The notes: generated from the sequence alone by a model not told the origin. Numbered from the stretch's first letter, positions 133 through 18,913 are shown. The stretch is DNA of 64,000 bases from Solirubrobacteraceae bacterium (GCA_016463515.1 JAEMRF010000002.1:15081-79080), one strand, 5' to 3'. Translations and numbers: made by a program.

Positions 133-154
133 TGGGCGGACGTCGGGAGATAGA

Positions 155-2215: not shown

Positions 2216-2769
2216 ACGCCGCCGAGGACGATCGGGTCGAGCCCGGCACCCAGAGCCGCGACGGGGAGGAGGGCTGCGGCCGGCAGAGCCGCGCCGGCGG
2301 CGACGGTGAGCGCGGCTCCGCGTGCGAGAATCCGGGTGGTAAGCCGCAGGCGGCGCGCCAGGCGCTCGTCGCTCTCGCGCAGCGCCCGTGGCGTCGGGAC
2401 CGGCACGGAGTCACCTTCCTTCCAGGTGCCTGGCAGTTCGTGTCCGAGCCAGACGAGGTCGGGGCGCACGCCAGCGTCGTGAAGAGCATGAAGTTGGGCG
2501 AGCGGTTCGTCGGGGACGGGGATCCTGCCGCGACGCCAGCCGAGCCGCCTTCGCGCAGTTGGATCCCTAACGTGGTCGGCAAACAGCCACGTACCGTGCT
2601 CGGTCCGAACTACGACCTCACGGTCCGGCAACGAGGTAAGGCCGACCGGACGAAGCTCGATCCCGCGTTCGCGTGCGGGACTCAGGACGAGCGAACTGGT
2701 CCGGTGCTCGAGTACGCGCTGGACTTCGGCGCTCGGGCGAACGACTGGCAGGACTTCGGTGACGGTCAT
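2155..2769 (-). CDS. Hypothetical protein with a C-terminal hydrophobic segment.
   Basis: 204-aa ORF. An AGGAGC Shine-Dalgarno lies 7 nt upstream of the ATG at 2769. Composition is coding-like. Confidence 0.6.
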   Translation of the reverse strand: MTVTEVLPVVRPSAEVQRVLEHRTSSLVLSPARERGIELRPVGLTSLPDREVVVRTEHGTWLFADHVRDPTARRRLGWRRGRIPVPDEPLAQLHALHDAGVRPDLVWLGHELPGTWKEGDSVPVPTPRALRESDERLARRLRLTTRILARGAALTVAAGAALPAAALLPVAALGAGLDPIVLGGVCHPATPVVSWTLLAQWDWE

Positions 2770-3130
2770 CGGCGTGCGCTCCTGGTTGAACGTGGTGTCG
2801 ATCTATTGCAGCTCGCGCGAGGGGAACTCGGCCAGCTCCACACATCGGCGGGGCCGACTGGGTCATCGAGTCGACGCCCGTGGCGCAGGCGGCTCCAGAT
2901 GCCCTCGACATCACCGGTCACGTCGCTCCCGTCACACTTGAGAACCGCGTTCCTGTGCCATCGGGGACGAGCGATCGACCAGGGACCTCCACACATCCGG
3001 ACTGATTCGTCGTGCCGCCCGATCACGACCACCGGGGCAAACTGTGGGAATGCTTGGCGTGAATGCCTGACCGGTCCTATCAGTGGTGCTCCTGGCCACG
3101 CGGCAACCCCGCCGAGAGAGGAGCCCCACG

Positions 3131-3622
3131 ATGTTGCAGAACGAGTCCACCCCCGAGGTCAACCGGTCCGAGCCGCGCTGGCGTCTCGCCGGTCGCGTCG
3201 ACAGCCTGCTCCGCGAGCTGGCCGGCGAGCAGTACAGCCCGGTCGGCATCGACGAGGACGGCGATCACTACTTCCAGGTCCTGTGGAGTGGCGTCCCGGT
3301 CTCGATCGGAGTCGAGCAGTTCCTCGACGAGGCGATCGTCACCGGCATCCACATCGTCGGCCTCCGCGCGACTGACGAGGACGCGGTCCTGGACTACGTC
3401 GCGGGCCGCAACGCCGAGATCCGCGTCGGGCGCGTGTGGGCTTGCGGCGACGGCGTCGTGTTCACCCACCACTTGTTCGAAAGCGGCGTCGACCGTGCGG
3501 GCCTGCGCCACCTGCTGAACCTGCTGGCGAGCGAGTCGCTCACCTACGGTGAGCTCCAGGCTCGCACCGGGGCGCTGAGCGTCGTCGACGCGGCTGCTCT
3601 CCACCGCCTCGGCGGTGAGTAG
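3131..3622 (+). CDS. YbjN-like (putative sensory or chaperone-like) domain protein.
   Basis: The internal ATG at 3131 is preceded by GAGAGGAG. The 163-aa acidic protein has a pattern (HYFQV..VPVSIGV..IVG..LLDYVAGRN..RVGRV) typical of actinobacterial YbjN-family proteins. Confidence 0.5.
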   Translation: MLQNESTPEVNRSEPRWRLAGRVDSLLRELAGEQYSPVGIDEDGDHYFQVLWSGVPVSIGVEQFLDEAIVTGIHIVGLRATDEDAVLDYVAGRNAEIRVGRVWACGDGVVFTHHLFESGVDRAGLRHLLNLLASESLTYGELQARTGALSVVDAAALHRLGGE

Positions 3623-3688
3623 CGCGCAGCTACACGGGGAGGGGGCGCGGTCACCCTCGAGGTGGCCGCGCCCCGCGCCTGCCGACCA

Positions 3689-3916
3689 CTAGATCCGCTG
3701 GCTGGTCCTGGTCCGGCCCCGCAGCTGCGCGGTCGTGTCTCGCCGCTGACGCTCGACGCCGTCGCGCCGGACGTTCTGCTGGTTTCGCGCGTACTGCTGC
3801 TGCGGCTGCGTCGGTGACTGGGTTATGCGCGCGTAGGACTCCAGGGCTCGCACGACGCTCGCCTCGGCCTGGCGTACGACGACGTGCGGTGGGGGGACGG
3901 GCGGGAGCGGGAACAC
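3689..3916 (-). CDS. Small Gln/Arg-rich hypothetical protein (75 aa).
   Basis: The GTG start at 3916 is preceded by a perfect AAGGAGG 7 nt upstream. It lies directly after the stop of the CAP-domain gene. Confidence 0.5.
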   Translation of the reverse strand: MFPLPPVPPPHVVVRQAEASVVRALESYARITQSPTQPQQQYARNQQNVRRDGVERQRRDTTAQLRGRTRTSQRI

Positions 3917-3931
3917 CGGTGACCTCCTTGG

Positions 3932-4396
3932 TCAGCGAATGAGTAGTCGGAACGGCGACTGCACCGGGTGCCCGTAGACCTGGACCCACATGAAACCGGG
4001 CAGCGTCATCGGCCTTGGGGAAAGGGGGATCACAGCGGTGCCGTGGTAGGTGAACTCGGGGCGCAGCAGGTTCTCGCGGTGCCCGGGGCTGTTGAGCCAG
4101 CCGGTGATCGCCTCGCCGGGCACCTCCTGCCCGCTGGCGAGGTTCTCGCCAAGGAGCTGCCACTCGCTCGAGTGGCGCCGGACGCGCGCCATCACGTCCG
4201 AGCCGTCGCTGCCGGTGTGCGAGAAGCGCCGCGAGGCGACGAGGTCGCGGGCGTGGTCCAGCGCGGCGGCGGCGAGAGATGGATTCCACGCGAGCACGCG
4301 CAGGCCCGCGTTGACTCGGACGCGGTTGGCGACCGAGCCGAGTTCGATCGGCGTCGGCGTGTGTCGCGGCTCGTCGGTCAGGCGGCGCCCGATCAC
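3932..4396 (-). CDS. CAP/SCP (PR-1, YkwD-like) domain protein with no recognisable signal peptide.
   Basis: NRVRVNAGLRVLAWNPSLAAAALDHARDLV...FSHTGSDGS...GENLA...GWLNSPGHRENLL matches the CAP-domain signature. The GTG start is 10 nt after the upstream stop. Confidence 0.8.
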   Translation of the reverse strand: MIGRRLTDEPRHTPTPIELGSVANRVRVNAGLRVLAWNPSLAAAALDHARDLVASRRFSHTGSDGSDVMARVRRHSSEWQLLGENLASGQEVPGEAITGWLNSPGHRENLLRPEFTYHGTAVIPLSPRPMTLPGFMWVQVYGHPVQSPFRLLIR

Positions 4397-4406
4397 GCTC
4401 GACCCC

Positions 4407-5969
4407 TCAAAGGCCCGAGCGCGACAGGTCGACTACGAACGGCTTCGGCGACAGTGGGCGGCTGTGCACGACCGCGCACTGTGGCCCAAACGGCGGTTCG
4501 AAAATCTCACGCGTATCGAGCACCGGCACGCGCTGGTGTCGCCGGTTGACCGCGCTGGCGAAGAAGTGATTCGTCTGGCGGTGGTGGTCGATCTCGATCT
4601 CCGGCCGCGTGCCGAGCCGCTCGCTCACTTTCTGCGCGGTCGTCGCGCCGACACCCGGCATAGTAATCAGCGTCTGGCAGTTGGCGAGAACTCCGTCTCG
4701 TACACGGCCCTCGGGGAACTGGGCGATATCTTGCGCTGCGAGCACCACCGACACCCCCGCGGCCCGCGAGGTGCTGAGCAGCAGCTCGAAGTCGACGCGG
4801 TCGGCGAGCCGGGCCGCCTCATCGATGATCAGGATCGCTGGGTAGGCGCTACCGCCGTGGCGGGCGTGGACCCGCTCGATCAGCAGGTTCAGGAACAGCG
4901 CCGCGAAACTCTCGCCGAGGCGGCCGTCGCCCAGCGGCGCGCCGAACGCGACGAGCCCCGAACCCGAGAGGGCGTCGTCGATCCGCACCCGGTCGTTGCC
5001 GGTGATAGCGTCGACCTGCGGCACCGCGAGCGGCTCGAGCGCGTTGACCACACCTGATGTGATCTTCGAGTAGTCGAACGGGTCCGCGGCGAGCGCATCG
5101 CTTAGCAGCACCTGGGCGCGGGGCGTCCCGTACGCGCTCACGTAGGCGCGCAGCGCGCGCTGATCGTGGACCGCCGCGAGCAGCTCGCGCGCCGTCACCG
5201 GCCGACGGGACGCGTGGGCAGTCGCGAGGAGGCCGGTCATCAGACGCGTGTCACGCTGCCAGAAGAACGGTTGCGGGTCGCCCGGGCGCTCGCGGCCTAT
5301 CAGCGCCTGTGCCGCGGCGGAAAGCCTGCGCTCGTCGGACAGCTCGCGGACGAACGCCCAGCCGTCGGGGGTCGGATGACGGTAATCGATCCGCGCCGCA
5401 CTGACGCCCGACACGCCGCTCGCGATCAGCTCCGCCCCGATCTTCGGCACGAGAGCACCGGTTACATCGGCGACGATCGTGGCGTAGCCCGCGTCCAGCG
5501 CCGCTGCCGCCCACGGCACGACGAGCGATGTCGTCTTGCCGGAGCCTGTCGGGCCTACCGCCAGCGCGTGCGTGGCGATGTCGCCGGGCGCGAGGCCGAT
5601 CTCTCTCTTGCGTCTTCCAGTGCGCGGGTTGACGAACCGCCCGAGGGGGAAGAGGTCATGCGCGCCGAGGCGCGGAAGCTCGCGCAGCGTCGCGGTTCCG
5701 CGGTAGTCGTAGTAGCCCGACATGTTGTGGGGCGGGCGACTGTCGGGGCCGAGTACTCCGCCTCTCGTGGCGAACGAGTCGAGTGCCACGCGTGTCCAGT
5801 GCCAGGTGCGCATGCGTGGGAGGAAACTGCGCGTCCGGCGCAGCAGACCCCGAATTCCACAGTTCGGCACTGGCGTGACCGTCGCGGCGAAGTGTGGAAA
5901 ACGATCCGCGCGCTTAGGCGCGGCGTCTGTACTGCTCGCATCGACCGGGTGCCCCCGACGGGCACCCAC
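4407..5969 (-). CDS. VirD4/TraD/TraG-like type IV coupling-protein-family ATPase with no TM segment. The start is uncertain (alternative ATGs at 5813 and 5723).
   Basis: Walker A is AVGPTGSGKTTS and Walker B is AILIIDEAARL. SRAAGVSVVLAAQDIAQF resembles the TraD/TraG C-terminal motif. No hydrophobic N-terminus is present. Confidence 0.8.
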   Translation of the reverse strand: MGARRGHPVDASSTDAAPKRADRFPHFAATVTPVPNCGIRGLLRRTRSFLPRMRTWHWTRVALDSFATRGGVLGPDSRPPHNMSGYYDYRGTATLRELPRLGAHDLFPLGRFVNPRTGRRKREIGLAPGDIATHALAVGPTGSGKTTSLVVPWAAAALDAGYATIVADVTGALVPKIGAELIASGVSGVSAARIDYRHPTPDGWAFVRELSDERRLSAAAQALIGRERPGDPQPFFWQRDTRLMTGLLATAHASRRPVTARELLAAVHDQRALRAYVSAYGTPRAQVLLSDALAADPFDYSKITSGVVNALEPLAVPQVDAITGNDRVRIDDALSGSGLVAFGAPLGDGRLGESFAALFLNLLIERVHARHGGSAYPAILIIDEAARLADRVDFELLLSTSRAAGVSVVLAAQDIAQFPEGRVRDGVLANCQTLITMPGVGATTAQKVSERLGTRPEIEIDHHRQTNHFFASAVNRRHQRVPVLDTREIFEPPFGPQCAVVHSRPLSPKPFVVDLSRSGL

Positions 5970-5983: not shown

Positions 5984-6760
5984 ATGACTGGTCAAGATCC
6001 CTTCGTGCCGTTCGGCGAGCAGGCCGTCGCCGTGCAGGGCGGCAACCAGCTCGCTGAGACCAGCGACTACATCGACTCGACTGGGACCACGATCGTGATC
6101 CCCGACGGCGCGGAGCCCGTCGCCGCGGCGACCCGCGAGGAGGGCATCGTCGAGGTCGCCGATGGCTCGCAGTCGATGACGGAATCGCTCGCGGAGACCG
6201 GTGAGCAGATCCCGGGTCTTCCGGCCCGCACCAAGGCGGCAGCTGCGACCGTCGCGGCCAGCGATGTCGTCGCGCGCCTCCAGACGAGCAGCAAGGCGGC
6301 GAACTTCTCGCTGGGCTTCGTCGCGTTCAACGACCGCGTGACGGTCGACCGGCCGATCGTCCCGATCCTCGACATCCCGGCGACCGACGACTTCGACCCG
6401 ACCGCGGCCGGTACCGGCGGCACTTGCATGTACCTCGGCTTGGAGGCTGCGCGCAAGCAGATCGAGCGCTGGCGGCAGGCTCGCCCCGGCACGCTGCACG
6501 TCTCGAATGTCGTCGTCCTGTACGGCGACGGGCTGTGCTCGAACCCGCAGCGGACGCTGCAGGCCGCCGCGGCACTGAAGGAGATCCCGAACGTTACGGT
6601 CGCCGCGTGCCTGTTCCGCGGGCCCCGGGACACGGACAGCGGCGCCCAGCTGCTGCAGGCGGTCGCGAGCGGGCCGCGCTTCTACAAGACGGTCCACGAC
6701 GCCGAGCAGCTGCGCGAGTTCTTCCTCGCGTCGATCACGCTCGCAGGCGGGGGTATCTGA
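5984..6760 (+). CDS. von Willebrand factor A (TerY-like) domain protein.
   Basis: MIDAS motif DGSQS in VADGSQSMTESL, then TGGTCMY and VVLYGDG. An AGGAGG RBS lies 8 nt upstream of the ATG. Confidence 0.85.
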   Translation: MTGQDPFVPFGEQAVAVQGGNQLAETSDYIDSTGTTIVIPDGAEPVAAATREEGIVEVADGSQSMTESLAETGEQIPGLPARTKAAAATVAASDVVARLQTSSKAANFSLGFVAFNDRVTVDRPIVPILDIPATDDFDPTAAGTGGTCMYLGLEAARKQIERWRQARPGTLHVSNVVVLYGDGLCSNPQRTLQAAAALKEIPNVTVAACLFRGPRDTDSGAQLLQAVASGPRFYKTVHDAEQLREFFLASITLAGGGI

Positions 6761-6761
6761 G

Positions 6762-7637
6762 ATGCTGTCGCGGCTCGACATGCACACCGGTGTGACGTTC
6801 ACGGTGTGCAGCGCTGTGGCGACCGCGTCCCCTCGAGGGGCGAGCAGCCAGGACCGGGCGGGCGCGCCGGTGGTCGCCGGCGGCGCGGCGGCGGTGCTCT
6901 GCGACGGCGTCGGGTCTCTCAAGGACTCGTCGCTCGTCGCGGAACTCGCTCTCGCGGCGGCCTGCGACCACATCACCGCGGAGGGGGTCGGGGCGGGGAT
7001 CGTCTCGTGCCCCGGCGTCGCTGCGGAGGCGCTCGCTGGCCACGGCGAGCTCCCCGACGGCGCCACGACTCTGGTAGCGATCGGTGCTGATGAGGACGGC
7101 CACGTCTGCTTCACACTGGTCGGAAACGGCTCGATCTTCGCGATCGAGCCGCTCTCGGTACGCGACGGGCGTGCGCAGCTCCTGTTCGGAGAACTCGCGC
7201 TACCGCACATGGAGATGGTCGGCGCCCAGGCTGCGCTGCGCTCTGTGCTTCCGGCTCAGCACCTCCCGGTGGAGGCGACCGCGGGAGGGCTGCTGCCGCG
7301 TCCCGGCCGGACACGGCTGCTCCTGGCGTGCACCGATGGGATCACCTCGGCGGAGGAGCGCGACCAGATCGGCAAGGTCGAGTCGACCGGGCAGGTGTGG
7401 GCGCAGATGCACCCGCCCTTCGTCGAGGTGCTTGAGGTGCTGAGCACGGCGTGGGGTGACCTGACCCGCGATCCCGGCTCGAGCGAGGCGCTGGAGCGGG
7501 CGCTCGAGTCCGCGCTCGAGTCGTGCGTGGGCCAGGGGCTGCTCGACGACGACGCGAGCGTAGGAGCGGTACTCGTCGCTCCGGTACCCGAGGGGCTGAT
7601 CCCTGAGGACGCCGCCGACGACGAGGCGGCCGGGTGA
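6762..7637 (+). CDS. PP2C-family Ser/Thr protein phosphatase.
   Basis: AAVLCDGVGS, TTLVAIG...LVGNGS, LLLACTDGITS and DDASVGAVLV are PP2C metal-binding motifs. The start is 1 nt after the vWA stop. Confidence 0.8.
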   Translation: MLSRLDMHTGVTFTVCSAVATASPRGASSQDRAGAPVVAGGAAAVLCDGVGSLKDSSLVAELALAAACDHITAEGVGAGIVSCPGVAAEALAGHGELPDGATTLVAIGADEDGHVCFTLVGNGSIFAIEPLSVRDGRAQLLFGELALPHMEMVGAQAALRSVLPAQHLPVEATAGGLLPRPGRTRLLLACTDGITSAEERDQIGKVESTGQVWAQMHPPFVEVLEVLSTAWGDLTRDPGSSEALERALESALESCVGQGLLDDDASVGAVLVAPVPEGLIPEDAADDEAAG

Positions 7638-9148
7638 GCGTCGCGCAGGTCACCTGCGTCGTCGCCGACTGCGCCGCCTTTGCCCGCCACCACCAGATCT
7701 CGCTCGTGGCGGGGGGCAAAGCGATCCAGCTCGCTGGCTCGGGGAGGGGGGGCGGCTTCGCGACGGTCCACCCGGTGCTCGCGATCGGCGGCGCAGCGCC
7801 CGGCGTGGCGCTGGTCGCGAAGGTCTTCAAGGAGAACGAGCTCGCTGACCTTGGCGGCGGGCAGGTCGTCGTCGAGACGCTCACCGGCCTCTGGGGCGCC
7901 CTCGGTGTGAGCGGCCGCCCCGACTGGCCCGAACTCGTCCTCGCACTGCCGTTCCAGCTGCTGACTGTCCAGCTCGACGGGAAGAAGCGATTCGTCGCGC
8001 TGATGCTCGACCTCGGGGCCCGCGGCTACGTCCCTGCGCCAACGTCGCAGAAGGGGGACGTAGCGGCTTACCGCCAGCGCACGCTCGACGAGCGGATCGC
8101 GTTCGCGACGAGCGTCGCAGAGAAACTCGGGCTGCTCGCCGAGTGCGGACTGCTCCACGGTGACCTGAACCCCGACAACGTGATGATCCACCCGAGGACC
8201 CACGACGTGCAGGTGATCGACTTCGACGCCGGTCGCGTGGTCACGACCGGCTCTGAGCGCTCAAGGGTCCCGGGCAAAGGCGACATCTACGTCCCGCCGG
8301 AGGTCAACGATCCGAACGCGCCGCAGGGCTTCGACCTCTCTAGGTTCAGCCTAGAGGCCGAGCGCTGGTCCTACGCGTCACTGATCGGGCTCTTCCTGTT
8401 CACCGTCCACCCTGGGTTCTTCCTCAATGGGATCTCCGCACTTTCGGGATACGCGTCGGCCGCCGACGACTGGCCGGACGTGGATGAGAACGCCGTGTAC
8501 TTTCGCGCCGATGCGCTGACCGCCTACGCCGCGTTCCGGCCGATCTTCGAGATGGTCCCTGCGGAGCTGACGACACTGTTCGCCACGTTGTTCCGCGCCG
8601 GCCCTAACGCGGCTGCCCGTCCGACGGCTCACGACTGGGTTGGAGCGCTCAGCGGGGTGTCCGAGCCGCCGACGATCAAGGTCAGGCTTGTCGGCGACGA
8701 CATCGTGATCGAGGGCGACGATGTCGTGATCGCATGGTGCGCCGACAACGCGCTCTACGTCGAACTCGATCCCGGAGGCCGCCAGCCCGCGACCGGGTCG
8801 ATGACGTTTGTAGCGAAAGAGCACTTCCATGTGCGCGTTGCCGCCGTCAATGCGTTCGGCAGCGAGACGGTCGAGAGCCCGACCGTACGTGTCGTGCCGC
8901 TGCCGAAGATCGAGCGCGTCCGCCTCCCCGTGCCGCCGGCATTTCAGATGCCGGCGCTCTCGATCGCCGCGCAGTTGCCCCGCGGGCTTGTGGACGTGCC
9001 TGCGGCTCAGCCGTACCCGGCGCCGCCGACGTTCGCCCGTTCGTACCGGGGCCCGGCGGAGCAGCCGTCGCCCGAACTCCCGGCTCCGCCTCGCTTCGCG
9101 CGGGCTGGCGGCCCACGCCTTATGGGCTCCAGCTTGAGGCGGCGGTGA
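7634..9148 (+). CDS. Ser/Thr protein kinase-like protein with a C-terminal Ig-like and Pro-rich extension.
   Basis: Catalytic loop LHGDLNPDNVMI, VIDFDAG (DFG-type) and YVPPEV. The start overlaps the phosphatase stop as GTGA. Confidence 0.85.
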   Translation: MSVAQVTCVVADCAAFARHHQISLVAGGKAIQLAGSGRGGGFATVHPVLAIGGAAPGVALVAKVFKENELADLGGGQVVVETLTGLWGALGVSGRPDWPELVLALPFQLLTVQLDGKKRFVALMLDLGARGYVPAPTSQKGDVAAYRQRTLDERIAFATSVAEKLGLLAECGLLHGDLNPDNVMIHPRTHDVQVIDFDAGRVVTTGSERSRVPGKGDIYVPPEVNDPNAPQGFDLSRFSLEAERWSYASLIGLFLFTVHPGFFLNGISALSGYASAADDWPDVDENAVYFRADALTAYAAFRPIFEMVPAELTTLFATLFRAGPNAAARPTAHDWVGALSGVSEPPTIKVRLVGDDIVIEGDDVVIAWCADNALYVELDPGGRQPATGSMTFVAKEHFHVRVAAVNAFGSETVESPTVRVVPLPKIERVRLPVPPAFQMPALSIAAQLPRGLVDVPAAQPYPAPPTFARSYRGPAEQPSPELPAPPRFARAGGPRLMGSSLRRR

Positions 9149-9253
9149 CTTCGAAGTGTGGAGGTAGCCGAAACGCTCGCTCGTCCGGGCATACAAACCA
9201 AGGCTCGCAAACCGCCGCGATAGGGAGCGGCGAGGAACGAGGGGATAGGTCCG

Positions 9254-10702
9254 ATGCAGGCGACGGTCAGCAGGTTCTTTCACTGGCTCGGGGGAATCGA
9301 CTCCGACGTCGTCGCGCGTGTTCCGCGGACGCGTATGCACGGCACCGCGGCGGGCGCGGCCGTGCTCATGGTCGGGGTGATGGCCTTTGCCGCGGGTGGG
9401 TTCTTCGCACGCGAGATGCTGCACCTGCCGGTCGGCGCGGCGCTGCTGGCCGCCGGAACTTGGGCGATGATGATGGTGAGCCTCGATCGGTTGATGCTCA
9501 CGAGCGCCAAGCGGCAGGATCGTACCTGGCTCACGGTCGCGCTCGCGATTCCGCGGATCCTGGTCGCCGTCCTCGCTGGGTTGGCGATCGCGCAGCCGCT
9601 AGTTCTCTTCGCCTTCAGGGAGGAAGTAGCCCGGCAGGTCCAGGAGGATCGTCAGACCGAGGAGACCGCCCGCGTAAGAGCGCTCGACGGTCGGTACGGT
9701 GACATCCCGAAGTTGGAGGCGCAGCAGAATGAGCTCGAGCAGGAGCTCACCAACGGCCCGGACATCACGTTCAAGGGGAACTCGGAGTACGACGCCGCGA
9801 CGGCGGCCTACGACGACGCCCAGGACAAACTCGCGAAGGCCGAGAAGAAGGTCGGCTGCGAGGCACAGGGGACGTGCGGCACCGGCAAGGCGGGGTGCGG
9901 CCCGGTTTGTCAGTCGAACATGCGTGTCGTCGATCAGCGCCGGAACGTCGCCGACAAGGCCAACCGCACGCTGCGTGAAGTTGAGTCGCGGCTGCGCCGC
10001 CAGGGTGCTGCGGCGGCCGACACCGCCCGCCGTATCGCGACGCCGGAACTCGCGCGGGTGAATAGCGCTCTGGCTGACCGTCGTGACGAGATGGAGAGCG
10101 ACCGCGCGGGTATCGCTGCCGACTTCGCGGCACCGGTGGGGTTCATCGATCGGACCCGCGCCCTCGAGCACCTCAAGCAGGAGTCACCAGCCGTGAGGTG
10201 GCGGGAGTGGCTCTTCGCGCTGCTCCTGGTCGCCATCGACACCTCGGCGGTCGTCATGAAGATGCTCGGACTGATCGGCAGGAAGTCGCTCCCCGAGCGG
10301 GTCGAGGAGGAGATCGAGGACCGCGACGTGGAGTGCCTAAAGGTGATCGAGGACGCCAAGGACGAGGCGAACCGCAAGGACGCCGAGCTCATTGAGAAGG
10401 AGGCGGAGATCCTGGTCGAGCTGCGCGAGGAGGCGCTCAGAGAGATGCATCAGGAGACCGCCAAGGTCGAGAAGGAGGTCTGGCGCGCGACGATCGATGG
10501 GTGGGCGAACTCCGTGCGGTCTCAGCTCACGAACAGCAGCGGGTTCGGCCTGCCGCAAGCGCCGCCGGACAACGGCAACGGAGGCGGGCCGCGGGCCAAA
10601 CCGGTCAACGGCAACGGCGCCTACGGGGTTTCGACCCCGCCGCCAGGCCGGCGCTTCCGCGTCCCGCGCAAGAGGCCGTCGGTCCCGCCGCCGGGCCCGT
10701 AG
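9254..10702 (+). CDS. DUF4407-like membrane protein with a central coiled coil.
   Basis: The N-terminus FHWLGGIDSDVVARVPRTR is followed by TM helices, a long charged coiled coil with a CEAQGTCGTGKAGCGPVC cluster, another TM segment and a Pro-rich tail. Confidence 0.7.
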   Translation: MQATVSRFFHWLGGIDSDVVARVPRTRMHGTAAGAAVLMVGVMAFAAGGFFAREMLHLPVGAALLAAGTWAMMMVSLDRLMLTSAKRQDRTWLTVALAIPRILVAVLAGLAIAQPLVLFAFREEVARQVQEDRQTEETARVRALDGRYGDIPKLEAQQNELEQELTNGPDITFKGNSEYDAATAAYDDAQDKLAKAEKKVGCEAQGTCGTGKAGCGPVCQSNMRVVDQRRNVADKANRTLREVESRLRRQGAAAADTARRIATPELARVNSALADRRDEMESDRAGIAADFAAPVGFIDRTRALEHLKQESPAVRWREWLFALLLVAIDTSAVVMKMLGLIGRKSLPERVEEEIEDRDVECLKVIEDAKDEANRKDAELIEKEAEILVELREEALREMHQETAKVEKEVWRATIDGWANSVRSQLTNSSGFGLPQAPPDNGNGGGPRAKPVNGNGAYGVSTPPPGRRFRVPRKRPSVPPPGP

Positions 10703-10780
10703 TCGCACCCAGCCGCGCGGCGGCGCCCTTCCCCTGGAGTCGTTCGCGATCGCGGTTGACCGCGCAGGTATGTTTCAGCC

Positions 10781-13534
10781 ATGTCCGTGGGGGACAGCAG
10801 GTATTGGGACACGTGGGGGCCGAGCGTCGGGTCGGTTGCCACGGACGGGCGCGCCGTCCCGGCGCACGCCACGTTGGCTCGCTACGTGTCACCGCGCGCG
10901 GTCGATGCTGCGCAATTGCTGAACGTTCCGCGGCCGGTCTCAGACGATCAATCCGCTGCCGCCGACCAGGCCCTTGCACGGGCCCTATACGAACGGCTGG
11001 CACTGTTGAAGCTGAGCTACGCTCTCGACCCGCGGATCCCGCGTGGGCTCAGGCGTCAGCAGATCCGACATCCGCAGTGGCTGCTCGCTTTGAAGTGGGG
11101 CACTTGCCTCGACCTGGCCGTGACGTACGCGGGCATGTGCATGTCGGCCCACATCGACCCCCTGCTGATCGTCGGTGAGCCTGTCTCGCTCTTCGGTGGC
11201 GAAGGGCACGCCCTGGTCGCGCTCATCCCCGGCAGGCAGCGCGGCGAGCGAGACCCGCTGATTCTGCCGGGCTGCAAGCCCGAGTACCCAGGAGTCCAAG
11301 TGGTCACCGACGCCGACCGGTTTGCCCGGCTGGTCGATAACGTGCTGCTGCCCGTCGAGTGCACCGGGGCTGTGATCCGCGCGGCGTCCGGACCCGCCTC
11401 AGCCGCGACTACCTCGTTCGCCGACGCGACCGCGGAGGGGGCCGCGGCGCTCGAGCGCCGCGACGTGCGCTGGCGCGTGATCGACGTGGCGTGGCTGCAT
11501 GAGCCCGACCGCGACGGCGTCATCCTCGCACCTCCGCTGGACCCGCCTGAGGGCCTACTTGGCATCGGCTCCTACCTGCCCGGCGGACTCGGGCACGAGA
11601 AGCTGGGCTCGGCGCAGCAGGAGATTCTCGATGAACTGACCGGCGCGACGGGCATCCACGTGATCGCCGCCCACCCGGGCTTCGGCAAGAGCACGATCGC
11701 GCGGCGGCTCGTCGCCAACGCCCCGTTCGGCTCCGGCTGGTTCCTCGGGGCATCTGACAAGAAGACGCTGACCAATAGCCTCGCCGAAGCCGAACTCATC
11801 GGGCAGAACCAAACGAGTGTGGGCCTCGCCGACGCCGATCGCGACGGGTACGCGGAGGCCGCACGAGGCCGCCTCCGCGAGGCAGACCACCCGTGGACCG
11901 TCATACTCGACAACGCCGACGACAAGCCCGACGAGGCCTTGGCGCGCATTCCGCCGACCGATGCGCGGCTCGGCCAACTCGTGGTGCTCACGACGACGGA
12001 CCTCGCGTGGGCCAACGCCAGCGGGCATCGCGTTCACCCGCTGGGCCCGGCTGCCGACAGCGAGGTGGACGCCGAACTCGGCAACTCAGACATCGCGCCG
12101 CTGGTCGCGGGCCGGTGGCTGCTGGTCAGCGCGTTCAAGCACCTGGCTGACGCGCTGGGCGTCAAGCCCAGCCAACTCTCGGTGGACGCCTCAATCGCCC
12201 GCACGGGCGAGAACGGCCCTCTCGCCATCTGGCAGACGGCTCGCGACCAGGTCCTGACGGAGGGCCAGGTGCGCGCGGCGCGGTGCGCCGCGTACCTGCC
12301 CCCGGACGTCGTCAGTGTCGCGGCGGTTCAGGAATGCGCGCCGGGTGAAGGCACAGCCGAGCGCCTGGTCGCCACAGGGCTCCTCGATGTCGCAGCGGGA
12401 GAGCACTTCGGACGTATGCACCGATTGATCGGAAAGGCGATCCGCGACGATCCGGATGGCTCCGACCTGGCCACCCGCGACCACGTCGCGGCAACGCTGA
12501 CCGGCTCCGCCGAGGCGGGCGACAATCTCGCCGAGTTCGGTGATCGTGCGCTCATCCTCGAGATTCTCGCGCTGCTCGAACACCGGTGTCGCAGCGCCCA
12601 GACACCCGATCGCGGGCTCGGGATCAGCCTCCACGCGCTCGGGAGCGTCCTCGAGCTCCGCGGAGCCACACGCGAGGCGGCCGATACCTTCGATACTGCT
12701 CGCGCTCACCTCACCGGCACCACCGACCGACCCCTTCTCGCCGACTGCCTGCTCGGCATGGCACGCCGCCACTTCAGGGACAGCAGCCCGACCCAGGAGC
12801 AGATCGACGAGGCCTTCGCGTGGGCCGACGAAGGCGAGAAACTGATGCAGCTGGCGGGGCTCGGAGCCAGTGCAGGGCGCTTCCTGGCGATGAAAGGGCT
12901 CCTCCGTCGCAAGCGGGGTACGCTCCGCGGCCGACCGAAGGACCAGCAGGTGCGCGACCTCCGGGCGGGGCTCGACATGGTTGAGACGGCCGACCGGATG
13001 CGCGCGGCCGACCCGACCACGCGTCCCGAGGAGCGGGCTCGAAGTCGGTTCAACCTCGCCGGGCCCCGGATCAACCTCGCGCAGCGCGATCCCGACAACT
13101 CGGCGGAACATCTCAGCAAGGCTGAGGAGATTTATCGAGAAGTCCTGCGGCAGCGCGAGGCCTTCTACCCTGGGCTCGACCACCCGCACGTCGCCGCATG
13201 CGTTTCAGGGTTGGCGATGGTCAGTTACTACCGGGCGGTGCTGCTGCCGTCGGACGCTCATGAGCGGCAGCGACTCCTCCGCGAGGCGACGCAGTACGAG
13301 CGCGACGCGGCAGCGCAGCGCGAGCGGCTCGCCGGGAGCCGCGACGACGGCGACGTGGGCAAGTCGCTCCGCCTGACGGCGAAGATCGCAATCGCTCGCT
13401 GGCTGTTCACGGTCGCTTCGGACAAGCGCGCGGAGAGGCACGAGGCGCTCCTGAGCGAGGCCGAGCGTGAGCTTCTCACGGCCGGGCTGCTGCCGTCCGG
13501 TGATGAAGCGAAACTGCCCGCTGAGGCCGCCTAA
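10781..13534 (+). CDS. STAND NTPase: N-terminal transglutaminase-like (papain-fold) domain, NB-ARC-type P-loop, then C-terminal TPR-like repeats.
   Basis: WGTCLDLAVTYAGMC and GEGHALVALIP are Cys/His of the transglutaminase core. Walker A is AAHPGFGKSTIARRL and Walker B is WTVILDNADD. About 450 aa of helical repeats follow. Confidence 0.8.
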   Translation: MSVGDSRYWDTWGPSVGSVATDGRAVPAHATLARYVSPRAVDAAQLLNVPRPVSDDQSAAADQALARALYERLALLKLSYALDPRIPRGLRRQQIRHPQWLLALKWGTCLDLAVTYAGMCMSAHIDPLLIVGEPVSLFGGEGHALVALIPGRQRGERDPLILPGCKPEYPGVQVVTDADRFARLVDNVLLPVECTGAVIRAASGPASAATTSFADATAEGAAALERRDVRWRVIDVAWLHEPDRDGVILAPPLDPPEGLLGIGSYLPGGLGHEKLGSAQQEILDELTGATGIHVIAAHPGFGKSTIARRLVANAPFGSGWFLGASDKKTLTNSLAEAELIGQNQTSVGLADADRDGYAEAARGRLREADHPWTVILDNADDKPDEALARIPPTDARLGQLVVLTTTDLAWANASGHRVHPLGPAADSEVDAELGNSDIAPLVAGRWLLVSAFKHLADALGVKPSQLSVDASIARTGENGPLAIWQTARDQVLTEGQVRAARCAAYLPPDVVSVAAVQECAPGEGTAERLVATGLLDVAAGEHFGRMHRLIGKAIRDDPDGSDLATRDHVAATLTGSAEAGDNLAEFGDRALILEILALLEHRCRSAQTPDRGLGISLHALGSVLELRGATREAADTFDTARAHLTGTTDRPLLADCLLGMARRHFRDSSPTQEQIDEAFAWADEGEKLMQLAGLGASAGRFLAMKGLLRRKRGTLRGRPKDQQVRDLRAGLDMVETADRMRAADPTTRPEERARSRFNLAGPRINLAQRDPDNSAEHLSKAEEIYREVLRQREAFYPGLDHPHVAACVSGLAMVSYYRAVLLPSDAHERQRLLREATQYERDAAAQRERLAGSRDDGDVGKSLRLTAKIAIARWLFTVASDKRAERHEALLSEAERELLTAGLLPSGDEAKLPAEAA

Positions 13535-14514
13535 CTTGTTGCGACGGCCAGGTACAGCTGCTTGAGCGCCCCGACACTTGACCGCGCCTCCTGAAGAAGC
13601 GCCGCAGGAGTAGGCTCCCATGCGAGCCGCGGGTCGACGATCCCGGGCGTGATCCCGACGGCGTCGACGTCGAGGTGGTGCGGGAGGCCCAGGATGCGGA
13701 TCGCATCGGCGAGCTGATAGAGGCGGTAGTGGAACGTGGTCACGATCAGAATCGACTGCCCCGGCGTGAAAGCCCGCTTGACGGCAGCGAGCCACTCGTA
13801 GGTGTCACCCGTGTTGGCGCGGCGCCCCGGCTCGGGCGACGGAGCAGCCGCCACCCGGACTCGCGTCCCGCCATCGAGCGTGTACTCGTTCGCCTGCCAC
13901 CGCGACCCGTCCGACCACTCTCCGCCGGAGTCCACATGCGGGTATCGGTCGAGCGCGAAGGCGCGGCGCATCCCGGCCTCCATGACGTCGAACTCCGTCT
14001 CGGCCGTGGCGAGCCGAAACTCATCGAGGATCGGCCTCTCCCTTTCGTTGACAGGACGGAAGGCGCCGATCGCGGTGACATCGCCGGTCTTGACGTCACC
14101 GCTCGCGATGAGACCGGCGGCGTGGAGCGGGCGGGCCAGGCACCCTCGCGCGAGGCCGCCCAGGATCAGCACGTGGTCGTAGCGCCGTCGGGCGGGGGGG
14201 AGCGTGTCCTGCAAGCCGAGGTCGCGCGTGGCGCGGTCAACCAGCGCGCGGGTCTCGCTGGCGAGCTTGGGGGCAGCCGCCTCGTTTCGCTCGCGCTCGT
14301 GGCGGAAGTCCCAGACGACGGAGAACTCGTCGAACCAGTCGAACACGTCAATCACAGAGCCCGTGCCGGGCGGTTCGCCTCCGTACGCGCGTGCAAGGTC
14401 GTGGAGAGCCTGCGACGTGATCCACTCGCGGCAGAACGTCGGCACGTCGGTCCCAGCCTCCAGCCTGGCAGGTGCGCCACCGCCCGCGGGTGGGGTGGGG
14501 CTTGGGTTCGGCAT
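13531..14514 (-). CDS. Hypothetical protein (327 aa), translationally coupled to pgeF.
   Basis: The ATG at 14514 shares one base with the pgeF stop (TGATG). Composition is coding-like. YDHVLILGG...SILIVTTFHYRLYQ weakly recalls a YdcF/DUF218 fold, but I am not sure of this. Confidence 0.6.
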   Translation of the reverse strand: MPNPSPTPPAGGGAPARLEAGTDVPTFCREWITSQALHDLARAYGGEPPGTGSVIDVFDWFDEFSVVWDFRHERERNEAAAPKLASETRALVDRATRDLGLQDTLPPARRRYDHVLILGGLARGCLARPLHAAGLIASGDVKTGDVTAIGAFRPVNERERPILDEFRLATAETEFDVMEAGMRRAFALDRYPHVDSGGEWSDGSRWQANEYTLDGGTRVRVAAAPSPEPGRRANTGDTYEWLAAVKRAFTPGQSILIVTTFHYRLYQLADAIRILGLPHHLDVDAVGITPGIVDPRLAWEPTPAALLQEARSSVGALKQLYLAVATS

Positions 14515-15356
14515 CACGGCGCCACCGGGCGCAGCATCGCGATGCCCGCGAGGCGGCCGGTCACCTGCTCGGCGCGGTGGGAGTAGAAGCGGTCGAGGTC
14601 GTCGATAGTTGACATTGATGAGATCTCGATCTGCTCGCGCGGCACGCCGGCGCGCACGAGGTCGAGGGCGTTCGCCTCCCACAGATCGAAGAGCGCTTTG
14701 CCGTCCCCAAGTGGGCGCAGGATCTTGTCGGCGTCCTCGCCGTATCCGGTACGGGCGGCGTCGATCACGTCGCCCCCGACTTCATACCGCGCCGGGGAGA
14801 TGGAAGGTCCGATTGCGGCGGCCAGCGACGACGGCTCCGTTCCGTACCGGCCGCGCATCACTTCGACGGTGCGCGACGAGATTCGCGCGACCGTTCCGCC
14901 CCATCCGGCGTGCGCGAGCCCAATAGCGTGATGCTCGGGGTCATACAGAACAACCGGCACGCAGTCGGCGAGTGTGACACAGAGCGGAATGCCGACCAGG
15001 TTGGTGACCAAGGCGTCGGTATCGGCGACGATTGTGTCCTCGTCGAAGCCACCTCGGTCACGCCGGCCGTCCTCGCGCTCGGCCACGTCGCGAGCCTCGA
15101 TAACCGCAACGTCGTCACGGTGAATCTGCTTGCACCAGATCGACCTCTCGAGCGGCAGGTCGTATGCCGCGAACAGCCGGCGCCGGTTCTCGAGCACTGC
15201 CGCCGGATCGTCATCGACGCGAAGGCCGACGTTCAGCGAGCCGTAAGGGACGCCACTCACTCCGCCGGTGCGGGTTGAGACGAGCGCATCGACGCGGGCC
15301 GCGGGGAGAGTCTCGAAACGGAGCGACACCAGTCCGCCGCGTTCATCGACCCGCAC
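14514..15356 (-). CDS. pgeF: YfiH/PgeF (DUF152, laccase-domain) family protein.
   Basis: STRTGGVS, CADCVPV-type LADCVPVVLYD, GLAHAGWGGT and FYSHR are family hallmarks. The gene has a GTG start. Confidence 0.85.
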   Translation of the reverse strand: MRVDERGGLVSLRFETLPAARVDALVSTRTGGVSGVPYGSLNVGLRVDDDPAAVLENRRRLFAAYDLPLERSIWCKQIHRDDVAVIEARDVAEREDGRRDRGGFDEDTIVADTDALVTNLVGIPLCVTLADCVPVVLYDPEHHAIGLAHAGWGGTVARISSRTVEVMRGRYGTEPSSLAAAIGPSISPARYEVGGDVIDAARTGYGEDADKILRPLGDGKALFDLWEANALDLVRAGVPREQIEISSMSTIDDLDRFYSHRAEQVTGRLAGIAMLRPVAP

Positions 15357-15435: not shown

Positions 15436-17196
15436 ATGAGGTTCCTCAACCAATCCGACATCACACGCGCCACAGCGTTGGCCGGCCTACTGACGGTTCC
15501 CGTTGTAGTCGCCGCGGGATGCGGTTTCTCGCGGACCGAAGCGTGGGAGTTTCCGGAGACGCGGGTGCAACGTGTGACGCCTCCCAAAGAGCAGGCGCTC
15601 GCGTACGCGACCGGCTCCCAGATCGGAGTCCTGCGCGACGGTCAGACCGCCGTCGTCGGCGAGATCGAGCCGGGCCGGCGGGTCGTCGAGATGAACTGGG
15701 CCGGCGACGGACTCACGCTCGGATGGGTTGAGCAAGACGATGAGTGGCACCGCCATCTCACGGTCGCCGACACCAAGACGGGGAAGAGTCACAGCTATTC
15801 CTATCCGATCGACGATCGAGGACATGGATTCGCGGGCCTTGCTCCCGGATTGCACACCCTCACGGGCGGGAGCTACGGCGGGACGTTCACCGAGTACACC
15901 TCCACGGGAGCAACGCGCAGCTACACGGTCGAGGTGCCTCCAACCGAACTCTCGATAGAACAGGCCGAACAGGACACGACGGACGACATCTCCCCACCAG
16001 GGACGTCTGTCGCGTTCGCCGCGCCGCTCTTCGGGCAGTGGCTGATCGGCGCCGAGAGCGATTCACGCGCGGGCGCGAAGGGCGCGCCTCAGCGCATCTT
16101 CTCCTACGACCCGGCGCGAGCAACGCTCACGCTGGCGGGAGTAGCTGGCTTCAGCGCCTCGGCGCTCCAACGCCGAGACGATACGTCCGCTCTATGGGTG
16201 GAAACGAGCTCTGGCGGGGCGTGCGATTCGTACTACGAGATCGGTGGCTACGGACTGCGCATCCCTGACCTGCCGAAGCTCCGTGCGAAGGGCGACGGAT
16301 ACGACAACTGGGAGATCCGGCGGGCAATCCCGGGCGATGGCCGAATCGACGTCATCGCTCGCGTGCTCCACGGAGGTTGGACTACGGACACCCCACCGCG
16401 ATGCCGGCCCGACACGAGGAGGTTGAGATGGATGACCTACAGCGATGGCGGGTGGCGCGACGTCGAGGACGGACTGGTCGACCTCGGGCTGGCGAACGAC
16501 GGTCGCGTGGCCCGGGTTTATGGGCAGGTTCGCCTCGACGGAGAAGGCCAAGAGGACGATGTGAGGCCGCTCGGCGCCGCCGTCTCCAATCCCGATGGAA
16601 CAGTCGTCAAACTCCCACATGACACGCGGATGGTGCTGTTCGCGCCCGACGCGCCGATGTCGCTCTCGGACGTATCGACTGGCACGACCGACTTGACCGA
16701 GAAGCTCCTTTTCGACGACTCCGGTGCCGGGCCGCTGAAGTTCGGGAGCGACCCTCGTGCACTCCAGGCCGCCACCAGCACGCACCTTCGCTTCGATCTC
16801 GATCGAGGCGGGTGCGGCACCGTAACCGCCCAGGACCCCGACCTGCAGCCGAGTCTCGGCACTACCGGCTACCTGAAAGATGGGAGGCTCGCCTGGCTCC
16901 GCGTCGACGCGCCCAGGGGTACTTCCGATGAGGGTGGCGAGTCGGACGCGGCTGTGCGGGAGGCGCCCGGAACGGCGACGTCGAGAGGCACTCAGGTCGG
17001 CGATTCGGTCGACGCTCTGCTCGAGAACGAAGGAGACCCGGATCGGGCGGACGTCGTTGACGACGACGCGACGCGCTATGTGTTCACGCAAGGTGATCTC
17101 ACACTCGCGGCGCTGGTAGACGCGGCTGGCACAGTTCGCACGCTGTGGTGGCTCCCCGACGGCCGGGCTTCACGCTGCCGAGACGAGGGCGGGTGA
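15436..17196 (+). CDS. Lipoprotein, paralogue 1 (586 aa), probably with a TolB/WD40-like beta-propeller.
   Basis: Signal peptide with lipobox VVAAGC. It aligns with the next gene (LAYATG.../LAYVTA..., WAGDGLTLGW/WSGDGRQLAW, RSYTVEVP/RSYRVTLP). Confidence 0.7.
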   Translation: MRFLNQSDITRATALAGLLTVPVVVAAGCGFSRTEAWEFPETRVQRVTPPKEQALAYATGSQIGVLRDGQTAVVGEIEPGRRVVEMNWAGDGLTLGWVEQDDEWHRHLTVADTKTGKSHSYSYPIDDRGHGFAGLAPGLHTLTGGSYGGTFTEYTSTGATRSYTVEVPPTELSIEQAEQDTTDDISPPGTSVAFAAPLFGQWLIGAESDSRAGAKGAPQRIFSYDPARATLTLAGVAGFSASALQRRDDTSALWVETSSGGACDSYYEIGGYGLRIPDLPKLRAKGDGYDNWEIRRAIPGDGRIDVIARVLHGGWTTDTPPRCRPDTRRLRWMTYSDGGWRDVEDGLVDLGLANDGRVARVYGQVRLDGEGQEDDVRPLGAAVSNPDGTVVKLPHDTRMVLFAPDAPMSLSDVSTGTTDLTEKLLFDDSGAGPLKFGSDPRALQAATSTHLRFDLDRGGCGTVTAQDPDLQPSLGTTGYLKDGRLAWLRVDAPRGTSDEGGESDAAVREAPGTATSRGTQVGDSVDALLENEGDPDRADVVDDDATRYVFTQGDLTLAALVDAAGTVRTLWWLPDGRASRCRDEGG

Positions 17197-17197
17197 G

Positions 17198-18913
17198 ATG
17201 CTGAGCCGGCGAGTTGTGGCAGGTTCAGTGACGGCGGCTCTGATTGCCGGGTGCGGCGGCGGCGACAAGCCGCGAGCGGCCTCCGATGGGAGGCGCGAGA
17301 TCGTGCGGCCTCCCAGCCCTCAGGTTCTCGCGTACGTGACCGCTCGCGCCGTCGTCGTCGAGGAGGCCGGGAAAGACAGGACCGTTGCTCGCGTCAATCG
17401 TGACGACCGCATCGACCAGTTCCTCTGGTCAGGTGACGGGCGACAACTGGCATGGCTGCAGAACACGGAAGAGCCGTCCTACGAACAGTCACTTCACCTC
17501 GTCGATGTCAGGACTGGTGTCGAGCGGACATGGAAGGACGTGTACGGCCTACTCACGCCGAGTCCCCGCGGCGTCGCGATCGGCGCCTACAACGGTCGCT
17601 TCCACGAGTACCTTCCCGATGGCGCTCAGCGCTCATACCGCGTGACCCTTCCCGCCACGCCCAAGCGGCGCAAGGCGCTTGGGCTCGAGCCAGCGTCACC
17701 CGCCCCCTCCACGGAGACGGCGTTCGCAACGCCGATCAACGGTGATTGGCTGGTTCCTGCGCGCCTGACGGGGGCCGGACCCGAAGGATCGAGGTACGAC
17801 CTGGTCGCCTACCGCGCGGACACCGCGAGCACGCGGGTTCTCCGGCCGAGCCGCGGCGAAGCCGGGATCGCTGCTGCGGTCCGCATCGATGACCGCCGCG
17901 TCGTCTGGGCTACCCAGGCCGGAACAGAGTGTGCAGCCGGGAATTCCCTGGCCGGGTATGGCTTAAAGGTCCCGAACCTTCCGGAGTCGATCGGCGCCGT
18001 CTGGATCGTTCGTGAACTATCTGCCAGCGGGGAGTCGGCCGATCTGATCGCTCGTCGCATGAGTTTCCTGCAGGGGTCGGACACGTGCGCATCAACGGAC
18101 GGTGGCCAACGGACATGGTTTCACCTCCGGAGAGGGAAGTGGCAGCAGCGTGGCGAGGGTGTGGCCGACGTGGCGGTCGCTTCCGACGGGCGGATCGCCC
18201 GCGTGAATGGCACCGTGCCTAGCGGCAAACTGGACGTTGGCCTGGAAGCGGACGAACTGGCATACGGCAGCGCGTGGCTCGAGCCCGTGGGTGGCGAGCG
18301 GACACCGCTACCGAAGGGAACGAGGGCGGTCGCATTCTCTCCGGCGTCGCCAATGACGTTGCGCACTACGGTGGGCGATGGGCCAGCGCTCACTTCGCGG
18401 GCGGTGCTGACGCCGTCCGGGGTCGGCGCGCTCCAGCTCGGGCGTTCCCTTGCGAGCATCCGGGCAGCGACGAGCACTGCTCTGACGACGCTCTCTCGGA
18501 ACGGGCGGTGTACGGAGATCCGCGCCACAGACCTGCGTCTCGACAACCGGCTCGGGGTCCGCGGCACGCTCGTCGACGACACGCTCGAAGCGCTCTCGGT
18601 CACCACGCGCGACACGAAGATCGATGATGAGGATGACTACGGGATCGGTGATCTGCAGCCGGGCGTGAAGAAGGTGGTACCCCGCGGGCCACGGACCTGG
18701 CGAGGCGTTCGGGCCGGGGACGCGCTCAACGATCTCGTGGCCGCTCACGGCATGCCCGCTCGCCGTACGACGAGATCCAGACAGGGCGCTGTCGAGTACG
18801 AGTACCAGGTGAAGGGCGGGCTTCTTGTCGCGCGTGCGGACGCGAACGCGACGGTCCGGCGGATCGATCTGTTTCGCGGCGGCACGGCGCCGTCCTGCGC
18901 GGCCCGCGACTAA
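17198..18913 (+). CDS. Lipoprotein, paralogue 2 (571 aa).
   Basis: Lipobox LIAGC. The start is 1 nt after the upstream stop. It is paralogous to 15436-17196. Confidence 0.7.
   Translation: MLSRRVVAGSVTAALIAGCGGGDKPRAASDGRREIVRPPSPQVLAYVTARAVVVEEAGKDRTVARVNRDDRIDQFLWSGDGRQLAWLQNTEEPSYEQSLHLVDVRTGVERTWKDVYGLLTPSPRGVAIGAYNGRFHEYLPDGAQRSYRVTLPATPKRRKALGLEPASPAPSTETAFATPINGDWLVPARLTGAGPEGSRYDLVAYRADTASTRVLRPSRGEAGIAAAVRIDDRRVVWATQAGTECAAGNSLAGYGLKVPNLPESIGAVWIVRELSASGESADLIARRMSFLQGSDTCASTDGGQRTWFHLRRGKWQQRGEGVADVAVASDGRIARVNGTVPSGKLDVGLEADELAYGSAWLEPVGGERTPLPKGTRAVAFSPASPMTLRTTVGDGPALTSRAVLTPSGVGALQLGRSLASIRAATSTALTTLSRNGRCTEIRATDLRLDNRLGVRGTLVDDTLEALSVTTRDTKIDDEDDYGIGDLQPGVKKVVPRGPRTWRGVRAGDALNDLVAAHGMPARRTTRSRQGAVEYEYQVKGGLLVARADANATVRRIDLFRGGTAPSCAARD

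Follow-up and report, generated by a model that had tools for sequence, protein, structure and literature searches.

A vWA-PP2C-kinase-DUF4407 gene cassette in a Solirubrobacteraceae genome is probably a rare, horizontally scattered variant of the TerY-P kind

A 64,000-nucleotide (nt) stretch of DNA from a Solirubrobacteraceae metagenome-assembled genome (GCA_016463515.1, JAEMRF010000002.1:15081-79080; hereafter the window), GC-rich at ~69%, carries a run of five same-strand genes at positions 5984-13534 that encode a vWA protein, a PP2C-family phosphatase, a Hanks-type protein kinase, a DUF4407 membrane protein and a STAND NTPase. On the evidence below, the functional unit is probably made up of the first four genes (the cassette, 5984-10702), which would represent a rare, horizontally scattered, actinobacterial-type variant of the TerY-P system, with the STAND gene as a separate neighbor. 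An earlier note, made from the sequence of the window, had described the first three genes as a TerY-P-type triad and had suggested that the two genes downstream enlarge it into an integrated conflict system. Comparison across loci upheld this suggestion for the DUF4407 gene, which adjoins the triad in 13/13 assessable loci, but not for the STAND gene, which lies near the cassette in four related genomes only and is arranged differently in each.

Conservation and distribution of the cassette

Loci were reached from homologues of the STAND protein, from homologues of the kinase, from kinase-profile scans and, for one locus (L018), from a DUF4407 protein with 26% identity. Word-indexed homologue searches resulted in 14 matches for the STAND protein (among 5.8 billion proteins), 14 for the kinase and five for the DUF4407 protein. 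The genome and metagenome scans were anchored on the kinase, and the neighboring genes were compared by tblastn and all-against-all clustering. Genes for all four proteins were found together in the window and at L004, L005/6, L007, L008, L009, L010, L012, L013, L015 and L018, and two more contigs (L001 and L011) hold cassette genes as far as they extend. The 13 assessable loci are those for which kinase-flanking DNA was available, and they include L018. At L019, no triad was found in the 2.3 kb upstream of a DUF4407 gene, at which the contig ends. Only the four cassette genes recur across most loci, other shared neighbors being present in two to four loci each.

The spacing of the genes and their divergence are consistent with this linkage. 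Across loci, successive cassette genes mostly overlap by 4 nt and are usually coupled in translation. In the window, the vWA and PP2C genes are separated by 1 nt and the PP2C and kinase genes overlap by 4 nt, followed by gaps of 105 nt between the kinase and DUF4407 genes and 78 nt between the DUF4407 and STAND genes. The 105-nt gap is exceptional, as the kinase and DUF4407 genes overlap by 4 nt at L001, L004, L006, L007 and L018. When pairwise identities of the four cassette proteins were compared across ten loci, they were correlated with r values of 0.84-0.93, suggesting that the four genes have been inherited and have diverged as one unit. In each of the three soluble proteins, the residues for catalysis and metal binding are kept across loci, and the DUF4407 protein is the fastest evolving of the four.

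The cassette is sparsely distributed. Scanning 185,579 species genomes (GTDB representatives) with the kinase profile returned a single locus (L008), and the corresponding scan of metagenomes returned nine. A full HMMER scan with the kinase profile resulted in 264 clusters (50% identity) with E ≤ 1e-30 among 1.84 billion representatives. Part of the clusters are proteins with immunoglobulin (Ig)-like repeats and not kinases, and the clusters come without contig placement. No relatives of the kinase were found in viral contigs, so a phage origin is not supported, and a search of PHROGs gave nothing meaningful. With the exception of two fragmentary matches, cassette loci have a GC content of 60-74%. 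The flanking genes differ at every locus and include a PLD/NgoFVII-like nuclease (L008), an N6 DNA methylase (L009) and, at L007, genes for Prok-JAB, small and ThiF-type E1 proteins upstream on the same strand (848-4285) and a gene for a 1151-amino-acid (aa) CHAT protease downstream (9555-13010). Such patchy, context-independent spread fits an accessory conflict module, without proving one.

Several loci depart from the common arrangement or carry additional genes. At L013, the order is vWA, kinase, a DA1-like zinc peptidase (8521-9234), DUF4407 and PP2C, and at L015 the vWA gene is tandemly duplicated (16-1612). Directly upstream of the cassette and on the same strand, L005 (4795-8345) and L012 (4677-8260) carry a gene for a 794-815-aa protein followed by one for a 379-389-aa protein, neither with a Pfam match. 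The Prok-JAB, small-protein and E1 genes of L007 constitute a ubiquitin-like conjugation set, and this locus may be a composite conflict island.

Components of the cassette

Real genes were distinguished by codon-position GC, and all five flagged open reading frames (ORFs) have a strong coding signal, with a GC content at the third codon position of 0.84-0.91 and boundaries as first proposed. The products of the kinase, DUF4407 and STAND genes are identical to NCBI proteins of metagenome-assembled origin. The translationally coupled trio that had been read from the sequence (a vWA protein with an intact DxSxS metal ion-dependent adhesion site (MIDAS) motif, a PP2C phosphatase and an HGDLxPxN/DFD kinase) was recovered in every particular. 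In the vWA protein, whose ATG is preceded by the strong Shine-Dalgarno sequence AGGAGGAG, the motif reads DGSQS (aa 60-64) and belongs to a complete MIDAS site (D60, S62, S64, T147 and D182) that is invariant or nearly so across 12 cassette vWA proteins. Hydropathy gave no transmembrane (TM) segment in this protein, suggesting that it is cytoplasmic. The phosphatase exceeds the Pfam cutoff for PP2C_2 marginally (25.3 versus 24 bits); its translation contains the motifs CDGVGS, TDG and DDDA, and the metal-binding pairs (D48-G49, D192-G193 and D263-D264) are kept in 11 loci.

For the kinase, in which the motifs read HGDLNPDN and DFD, the Pfam Pkinase and APH matches are weak, yet the fold is clearly of the Hanks type. 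A profile search built on 14 homologues matched CDK12/13 (E value 3e-6) and many other Hanks kinases, the AlphaFold2 (AF2) model (mean predicted local distance difference test score (pLDDT) 83) matched ULK1, GSK3 and PknB in Foldseek, and K63, D177, N182 and D196 are invariant in the alignment of homologues. An Ig-like domain and Pro-rich tail had been pointed out behind the kinase domain, and the model contains both, the former as a beta-sandwich of seven strands and the latter as a disordered segment (see the table). Domains homologous to the Ig-like one are present in two to nine copies in longer kinases of the same family. No convincing TM segment and no evident signal peptide were found in the kinase, phosphatase or vWA protein; the only hydropathy peak of the kinase (aa 47-65) falls in beta-strands of its N-lobe. 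The same Ig-like repeat occurs in up to 45 copies in giant proteins, such as a 4314-aa protein with Malectin and I-set domains, and proteins that bear such repeats include P0055, P0123 and P0132.

The fourth protein is a full-length member of Pfam DUF4407 (PF14362), matching profile positions 2-291 of 297 with 188.9 bits against a gathering threshold of 31.3 (E 1.6e-55). Hydropathy places TM helices at about aa 28-53, 58-80, 90-122 and 319-342, and a coiled-coil hairpin of ~195 aa (aa 123-318, arms ~11 nm) lies between the third and fourth. The description of this protein as a TM/coiled-coil protein with a four-Cys cluster was thus accurate: the cluster CEAQGTCGTGKAGCGPVC sits at the hairpin tip (aa 202-219, nt 9857-9910), and its first two cysteines are kept in 8/8 aligned homologues and all four in the closer clade. 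As the N-terminus and the loop between the second and third TM helices are positively charged and lie on the same side of the membrane, the hairpin is predicted to be outside. Another coiled coil and a Pro-rich tail are present at the C-terminus. The alignment of DUF4407 homologues contains no conserved stretch of 7-10 residues. No functional account of DUF4407 was found in the searchable literature, the family is without assigned function, and the obligate linkage to the triad seen in this clade is not recorded in its Pfam entry.

Relation to TerY-P and other conflict systems

The TerY-P triad was reportedly described by Anantharaman, Iyer and Aravind in 2012. Its members are a vWA protein of the TerY type, a PP2C phosphatase and a Ser/Thr kinase; a role as a metal-dependent phosphorylation switch has been suggested for the triad, which is often found within conflict loci (PMC11090510). 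In the cassette, a MIDAS vWA protein, a phosphatase of the PP2C family and a Hanks-type Ser/Thr kinase likewise follow in this order and with tight coupling. The cassette differs in several respects. The TerY-P kinase among the anti-phage systems of Gao et al. 2020 ends in an OB fold and the kinase of CoCoNuT-linked triads in a zinc ribbon (PMC11090510), whereas the cassette kinase ends in the Ig-like beta-sandwich and Pro-rich tail. The cassette adds the DUF4407 membrane protein as an obligate fourth gene. Finally, the cassette family is very rare and is apparently confined to high-GC, probably actinobacterial, genomes.

The proteins of the window were also compared with the PADLOC models, and TerY-P was not detected. 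Neither the vWA protein nor the phosphatase matched any model, including that for TerY (PDLC02224), even at E ≤ 10. The kinase matched the STK_OB model (PDLC02223) with an E value of 2.1e-4 over aa 166-200 only, a stretch of ~35 residues around the catalytic loop. The distant vWA protein of L013 gave a weak match to the TerY model (E 0.002). The non-detection by PADLOC, the Ig-like end of the kinase and the obligate DUF4407 gene together suggest a distant variant of the TerY-P kind rather than the family that was tested against phages. Hence the TerY-P assignment of the earlier note holds for domain composition and gene order and fails for membership in the tested system.

The window also bears a likeness to the Type III-A extensions of CoCoNuT systems, in which TerY-like vWA modules flank FtsK/EssC-, VirB4- or SpoVK-type ATPases (PMC11090510). 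Here, the vWA gene is directly beside, and divergent from, a gene for a TraG/VirD4-like ATPase. In contrast to the CoCoNuT cases, this ATPase gene is on the opposite strand and was found beside the cassette in only three related genomes, and McrBC, CnuH and HEPN genes are all missing.

The STAND gene and its partners

The translation of the fifth gene contains the motifs WGTCLDLA, GHALVA and GFGKST, on which its description as a 917-aa STAND NTPase with TPR repeats and a transglutaminase/papain-fold N-terminal domain had been based. No significant Pfam match was obtained, no PADLOC model matched, and a profile search of the PDB gave weak P-loop matches only. The AF2 model (pLDDT 85) matched the STAND-TPR structure 6mfv (4.6e-13), Apaf-1 (9e-9), Avs3 (8e-8), MalT (3e-6), CED-4 (5e-6) and plant NLRs (NRC) in Foldseek, confirming the STAND and TPR architecture, and the GxGKS and DNAD motifs are invariant among homologues. 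The N-terminal domain is probably transglutaminase-like, although the profiles fall short of their thresholds (Transglut_core, E 0.14 and 0.015, below cutoff; NCBIfam anti-phage ProA, 4e-7 over 70 aa, far under the model cutoff). C109 and H143 are invariant, the third position is D/E, and in the model the Cys begins a helix (109-122) and the His a strand (143-148). Residues conserved at the N-terminus of homologues support the long ORF start, which lies 103 codons before the start called by NCBI. No Shine-Dalgarno sequence precedes the gene (10750-10783), and a TATGTT hexamer resembling a -10 element ends 7 nt ahead of the ATG, at the distance that a leaderless transcript would require; from this sequence, the gene may have its own leaderless transcript of the actinobacterial type.

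Proximity of the STAND gene to the cassette (within 10 kb) is limited to four related, Solirubrobacterales-like genomes, which show four arrangements. In the window it is directly downstream and on the same strand. On the P0002 contig it is ~8 kb away, beyond genes for Rv3785_N, PgeF, Mur ligase, MurL, CAP and TraG proteins. At L001 it is on the strand opposite to that of the cassette, and two genes separate it from the DUF4407 gene. At L004 (15143-17778, minus strand) it is convergent and broken up among several reading frames. In the sequenced flanks (1-10 kb) of L005-L018, neither a STAND homologue nor any other gene with a Walker A motif was found beside the cassette, and a general pattern of cassette plus NTPase partner was rejected on the absence of such Walker A genes from L005-L015. 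The split L004 homologue may be a pseudogene or may reflect frameshifts in a long-read assembly; the cassette beside it is intact.

Conversely, no cassette was found within 10 kb of the distant STAND homologues at L002/3, L020 and L021, which always adjoin genes for GNAT, Mur ligase and MurL proteins. In 11 homologues of 1150-1210 aa, an Rv3785_N domain (PF27209) is fused to the C-terminus of the STAND protein (L002, 8708-12313; L020, 10001-13573; L021, 10001-13582). The window has an Rv3785_N-type gene that is convergent with the STAND gene and overlaps it by 4 nt, and aa 87-377 of its product are 46% identical to the region that follows the STAND part of the L002/L003 ORF (tblastn, E 3e-72). 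This homology indicates that the Rv3785_N protein is the real conserved partner of the STAND protein. The STAND gene, which is conserved within its lineage, therefore belongs to a peptidoglycan-gene region and not to the cassette. The earlier expectation that both downstream genes would be syntenic with the triad was borne out for DUF4407 and, outside the four relatives, not for STAND.

Like Avs/AVAST, bNACHT and 6mfv proteins, the window STAND protein has an enzyme-like domain at its N-terminus, followed by a P-loop STAND NTPase and a TPR array that resembles a sensor. It differs from these proteins in that the STAND loci examined keep a stable chromosomal neighborhood of peptidoglycan genes and in being fused or adjacent to an Rv3785_N domain. 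The fusion of STAND and Rv3785_N genes ties a STAND NTPase to peptidoglycan genes. Nothing useful was found in the literature on the NCBIfam ProA anti-phage protein or on Rv3785.

Proposed function and alternatives

We propose that the cassette acts as a membrane-anchored phospho-switch, which would most likely serve as a defense or envelope-conflict module. In this model, the DUF4407 protein would sit in the membrane with a disulfide-tipped coiled-coil stalk of ~11 nm outside, where disulfides can form at the Cys cluster of the hairpin tip, and with its C-terminal coiled coil and tail inside, and would act as an envelope-facing sensor or a membrane effector. The kinase would dock through its Ig-like domain or its tail and, when triggered, for example by phage attack or damage to the envelope, would phosphorylate the vWA protein, the DUF4407 tail or both. 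The MIDAS site of the vWA protein could then bind or release a phosphorylated or acidic partner, and the phosphatase would reset the switch. The output would most likely be an altered state of the membrane or envelope, resulting in abortive infection or exclusion of incoming DNA. That the output serves defense or conflict rather than envelope homeostasis is a tentative assignment, quite possible rather than probable. The stronger proposal, that the cassette is a hitherto undescribed immune or envelope-surveillance system in which the DUF4407 stalk crosses the wall and either signals to the switch or becomes a membrane-disrupting effector, falls on the unlikely side.

If this last proposal is correct, the TerY-P class gains its first identifiable sensor or effector partner; we found no published account of how TerY-P senses infection or of its effector. 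An obligate membrane partner, together with a kinase that carries a putatively protein-binding Ig-like domain where other triads have a nucleic-acid-binding domain, suggests that sensing or execution takes place at the envelope and offers a handle on both questions. The cassette also provides DUF4407 with its first consistent functional context. The four-gene linkage is undescribed in the searchable literature, which does not include the founding TerY-P paper.

A number of observations weigh against a horizontally spread conflict cassette of four genes. The cassettes of L004, L005 and L018 lie among ordinary metabolic genes, and neither the PADLOC nor the NCBIfam models recognize the cassette as a defense system. 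Most loci are short metagenomic contigs of unclear taxonomy, so that independence and horizontal transfer are deduced from differing flanks and not from phylogeny. The outward orientation of the DUF4407 stalk is predicted from hydropathy, the positive-inside rule and the cysteines. Furthermore, four related genomes have kept the STAND gene no more than 10 kb from the cassette through rearrangements, which could reflect a functional tie instead of mere regional synteny.

This persistent proximity also speaks for a five-gene integrated system, in which the STAND-TPR protein would be a sensor or effector hub regulated by the phospho-triad and membrane protein. The same-strand position 78 nt behind the DUF4407 gene, the Apaf-1/Avs-type fold used in immunity and the weak match of the N-terminal domain to anti-phage ProA agree with such a system. 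We nevertheless consider it quite improbable, as the same-strand adjacency occurs in one of the four related genomes, the gene lying beyond ~8 kb of other genes on the P0002 contig and on the opposite strand at L001 and L004, where at L004 it is split over frames beside an intact cassette. Nor was it found in the flanking sequence available for nine other cassette loci. Its cassette-free homologues keep the GNAT, Mur ligase and MurL genes and the fused Rv3785_N domain, and the window copy lacks a Shine-Dalgarno sequence and may be read from a leaderless promoter of its own. Judged from a single genome, the same-strand adjacency would have led to an overlarge, five-gene system; comparative synteny shows a regional neighborhood, with an Rv3785_N domain and peptidoglycan genes as the real partners of the STAND protein. 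At the other extreme, a plain member of the described and tested TerY-P system followed by two unrelated genes would explain the three shared domains, their order and coupling, the weak TerY match at L013 and the weak STK_OB matches of the kinases. This is hardly credible given that the window vWA protein and phosphatase match no PADLOC model, that the STK_OB alignment is limited to the catalytic loop, that the kinase has an Ig-like domain in place of an OB fold or zinc ribbon (PMC11090510), and that the DUF4407 gene is invariably linked to the triad.

The alternative that bears on function rather than on composition is an accessory, non-defense module for envelope or developmental Ser/Thr signaling in Actinomycetota, in which the DUF4407 protein would report the state of the wall and the kinase and phosphatase would tune envelope physiology. 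The Solirubrobacterales-like cassettes do lie in a peptidoglycan region (PgeF/Cu-oxidase_4, MurL, Mur ligase and CAP/DalA-like genes), several other loci have metabolic flanks, no defense-library model matches the cassette, and the window lacks mobile-element boundaries, tRNA genes and flanking repeats. Against this stand the extreme patchiness (1 of 185,579 species genomes by the pattern scan, with different flanks everywhere), the three loci at which nuclease, methylase or JAB/E1 and CHAT genes adjoin the cassette, and a vWA-PP2C-kinase architecture that is otherwise known from conflict systems (PMC11090510); we regard such a role as unlikely.

Gene map of the window

The features of the cassette and its surroundings are listed in the table. 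Neither tRNA genes nor credible flanking repeats, and thus no mobile-element boundaries, were found in the window, and terminator-like and sigma-70 promoter-like sites are no more frequent in it than in shuffled sequence.

Table. Genes and protein domains of the window (positions in nt of the window; residue numbers given as aa)
Feature	Position	Strand	Basis or remark
75-aa basic protein	3689-3916	-	
CAP-domain protein (DalA/YkwD-like)	3932-4396	-	
TraG/VirD4-like (FtsK-HerA superfamily) soluble ATPase	4407-5969	-	divergent neighbor
vWA protein, 258 aa	5984-6760	+	cassette gene 1; Pfam VWA, E 2.9e-8
PP2C-family Ser/Thr phosphatase, 291 aa	6762-7637	+	cassette gene 2; Pfam PP2C_2, E 1.3e-5
Hanks-type protein kinase, 504 aa	7634-9148	+	cassette gene 3; AF2 fold
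Kinase: kinase domain	7634-8659 (aa 1-342)	+	AF2
Kinase: Ig-like beta-sandwich	8672-8896 (aa 347-421)	+	AF2; seven strands
Kinase: disordered Pro-rich tail	8945-9145 (aa 438-504)	+	AF2
DUF4407 membrane protein, 482 aa	9254-10702	+	cassette gene 4; Pfam DUF4407
STAND NTPase, 917 aa	10781-13534	+	neighbor outside the cassette; AF2 and Foldseek
STAND: probable transglutaminase-like N-terminal domain	aa ~59-240	+	C109, H143
STAND: P-loop NTPase	Walker A, aa 300-305; Walker B, aa 373-380	+	
STAND: TPR-like helical repeats	aa ~560-900	+	
Rv3785_N-type protein, 383 aa	13531-14682	-	tblastn; PF27209 in fused or adjacent relatives
Cu-oxidase_4/PgeF	14514-15356	-	
Mur ligase and MurL (the window's own)	30409-33268		

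The TraG/VirD4-like ATPase matched Pfam TrwB_AAD_bind (3.8e-13) and TraG-D_C (5.5e-12) and, under the model cutoff, NCBIfam conju_CD1115 (9.5e-16). It has no TM segment, and the CAP-domain protein next to it has no obvious signal peptide. Together with the gene for the 75-aa protein, these genes form a trio that is kept in three related genomes (the window, the P0002 contig and L001) and is absent from L004-L018. The trio is therefore outside the cassette and behaves like the STAND gene in being confined to related genomes. With no further conjugation genes nearby, the ATPase appears to be an orphan resembling a coupling protein.

Three large genes beyond the PgeF gene had no match by tblastn in the related loci examined. 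Two of them are adjacent on the plus strand (15436-18913) and encode proteins of 586 and 571 aa without any Pfam match, and the third, convergent with them (18910-22131, minus strand), encodes a 1073-aa protein whose sole recognizable part is a C-terminal WD40 beta-propeller.

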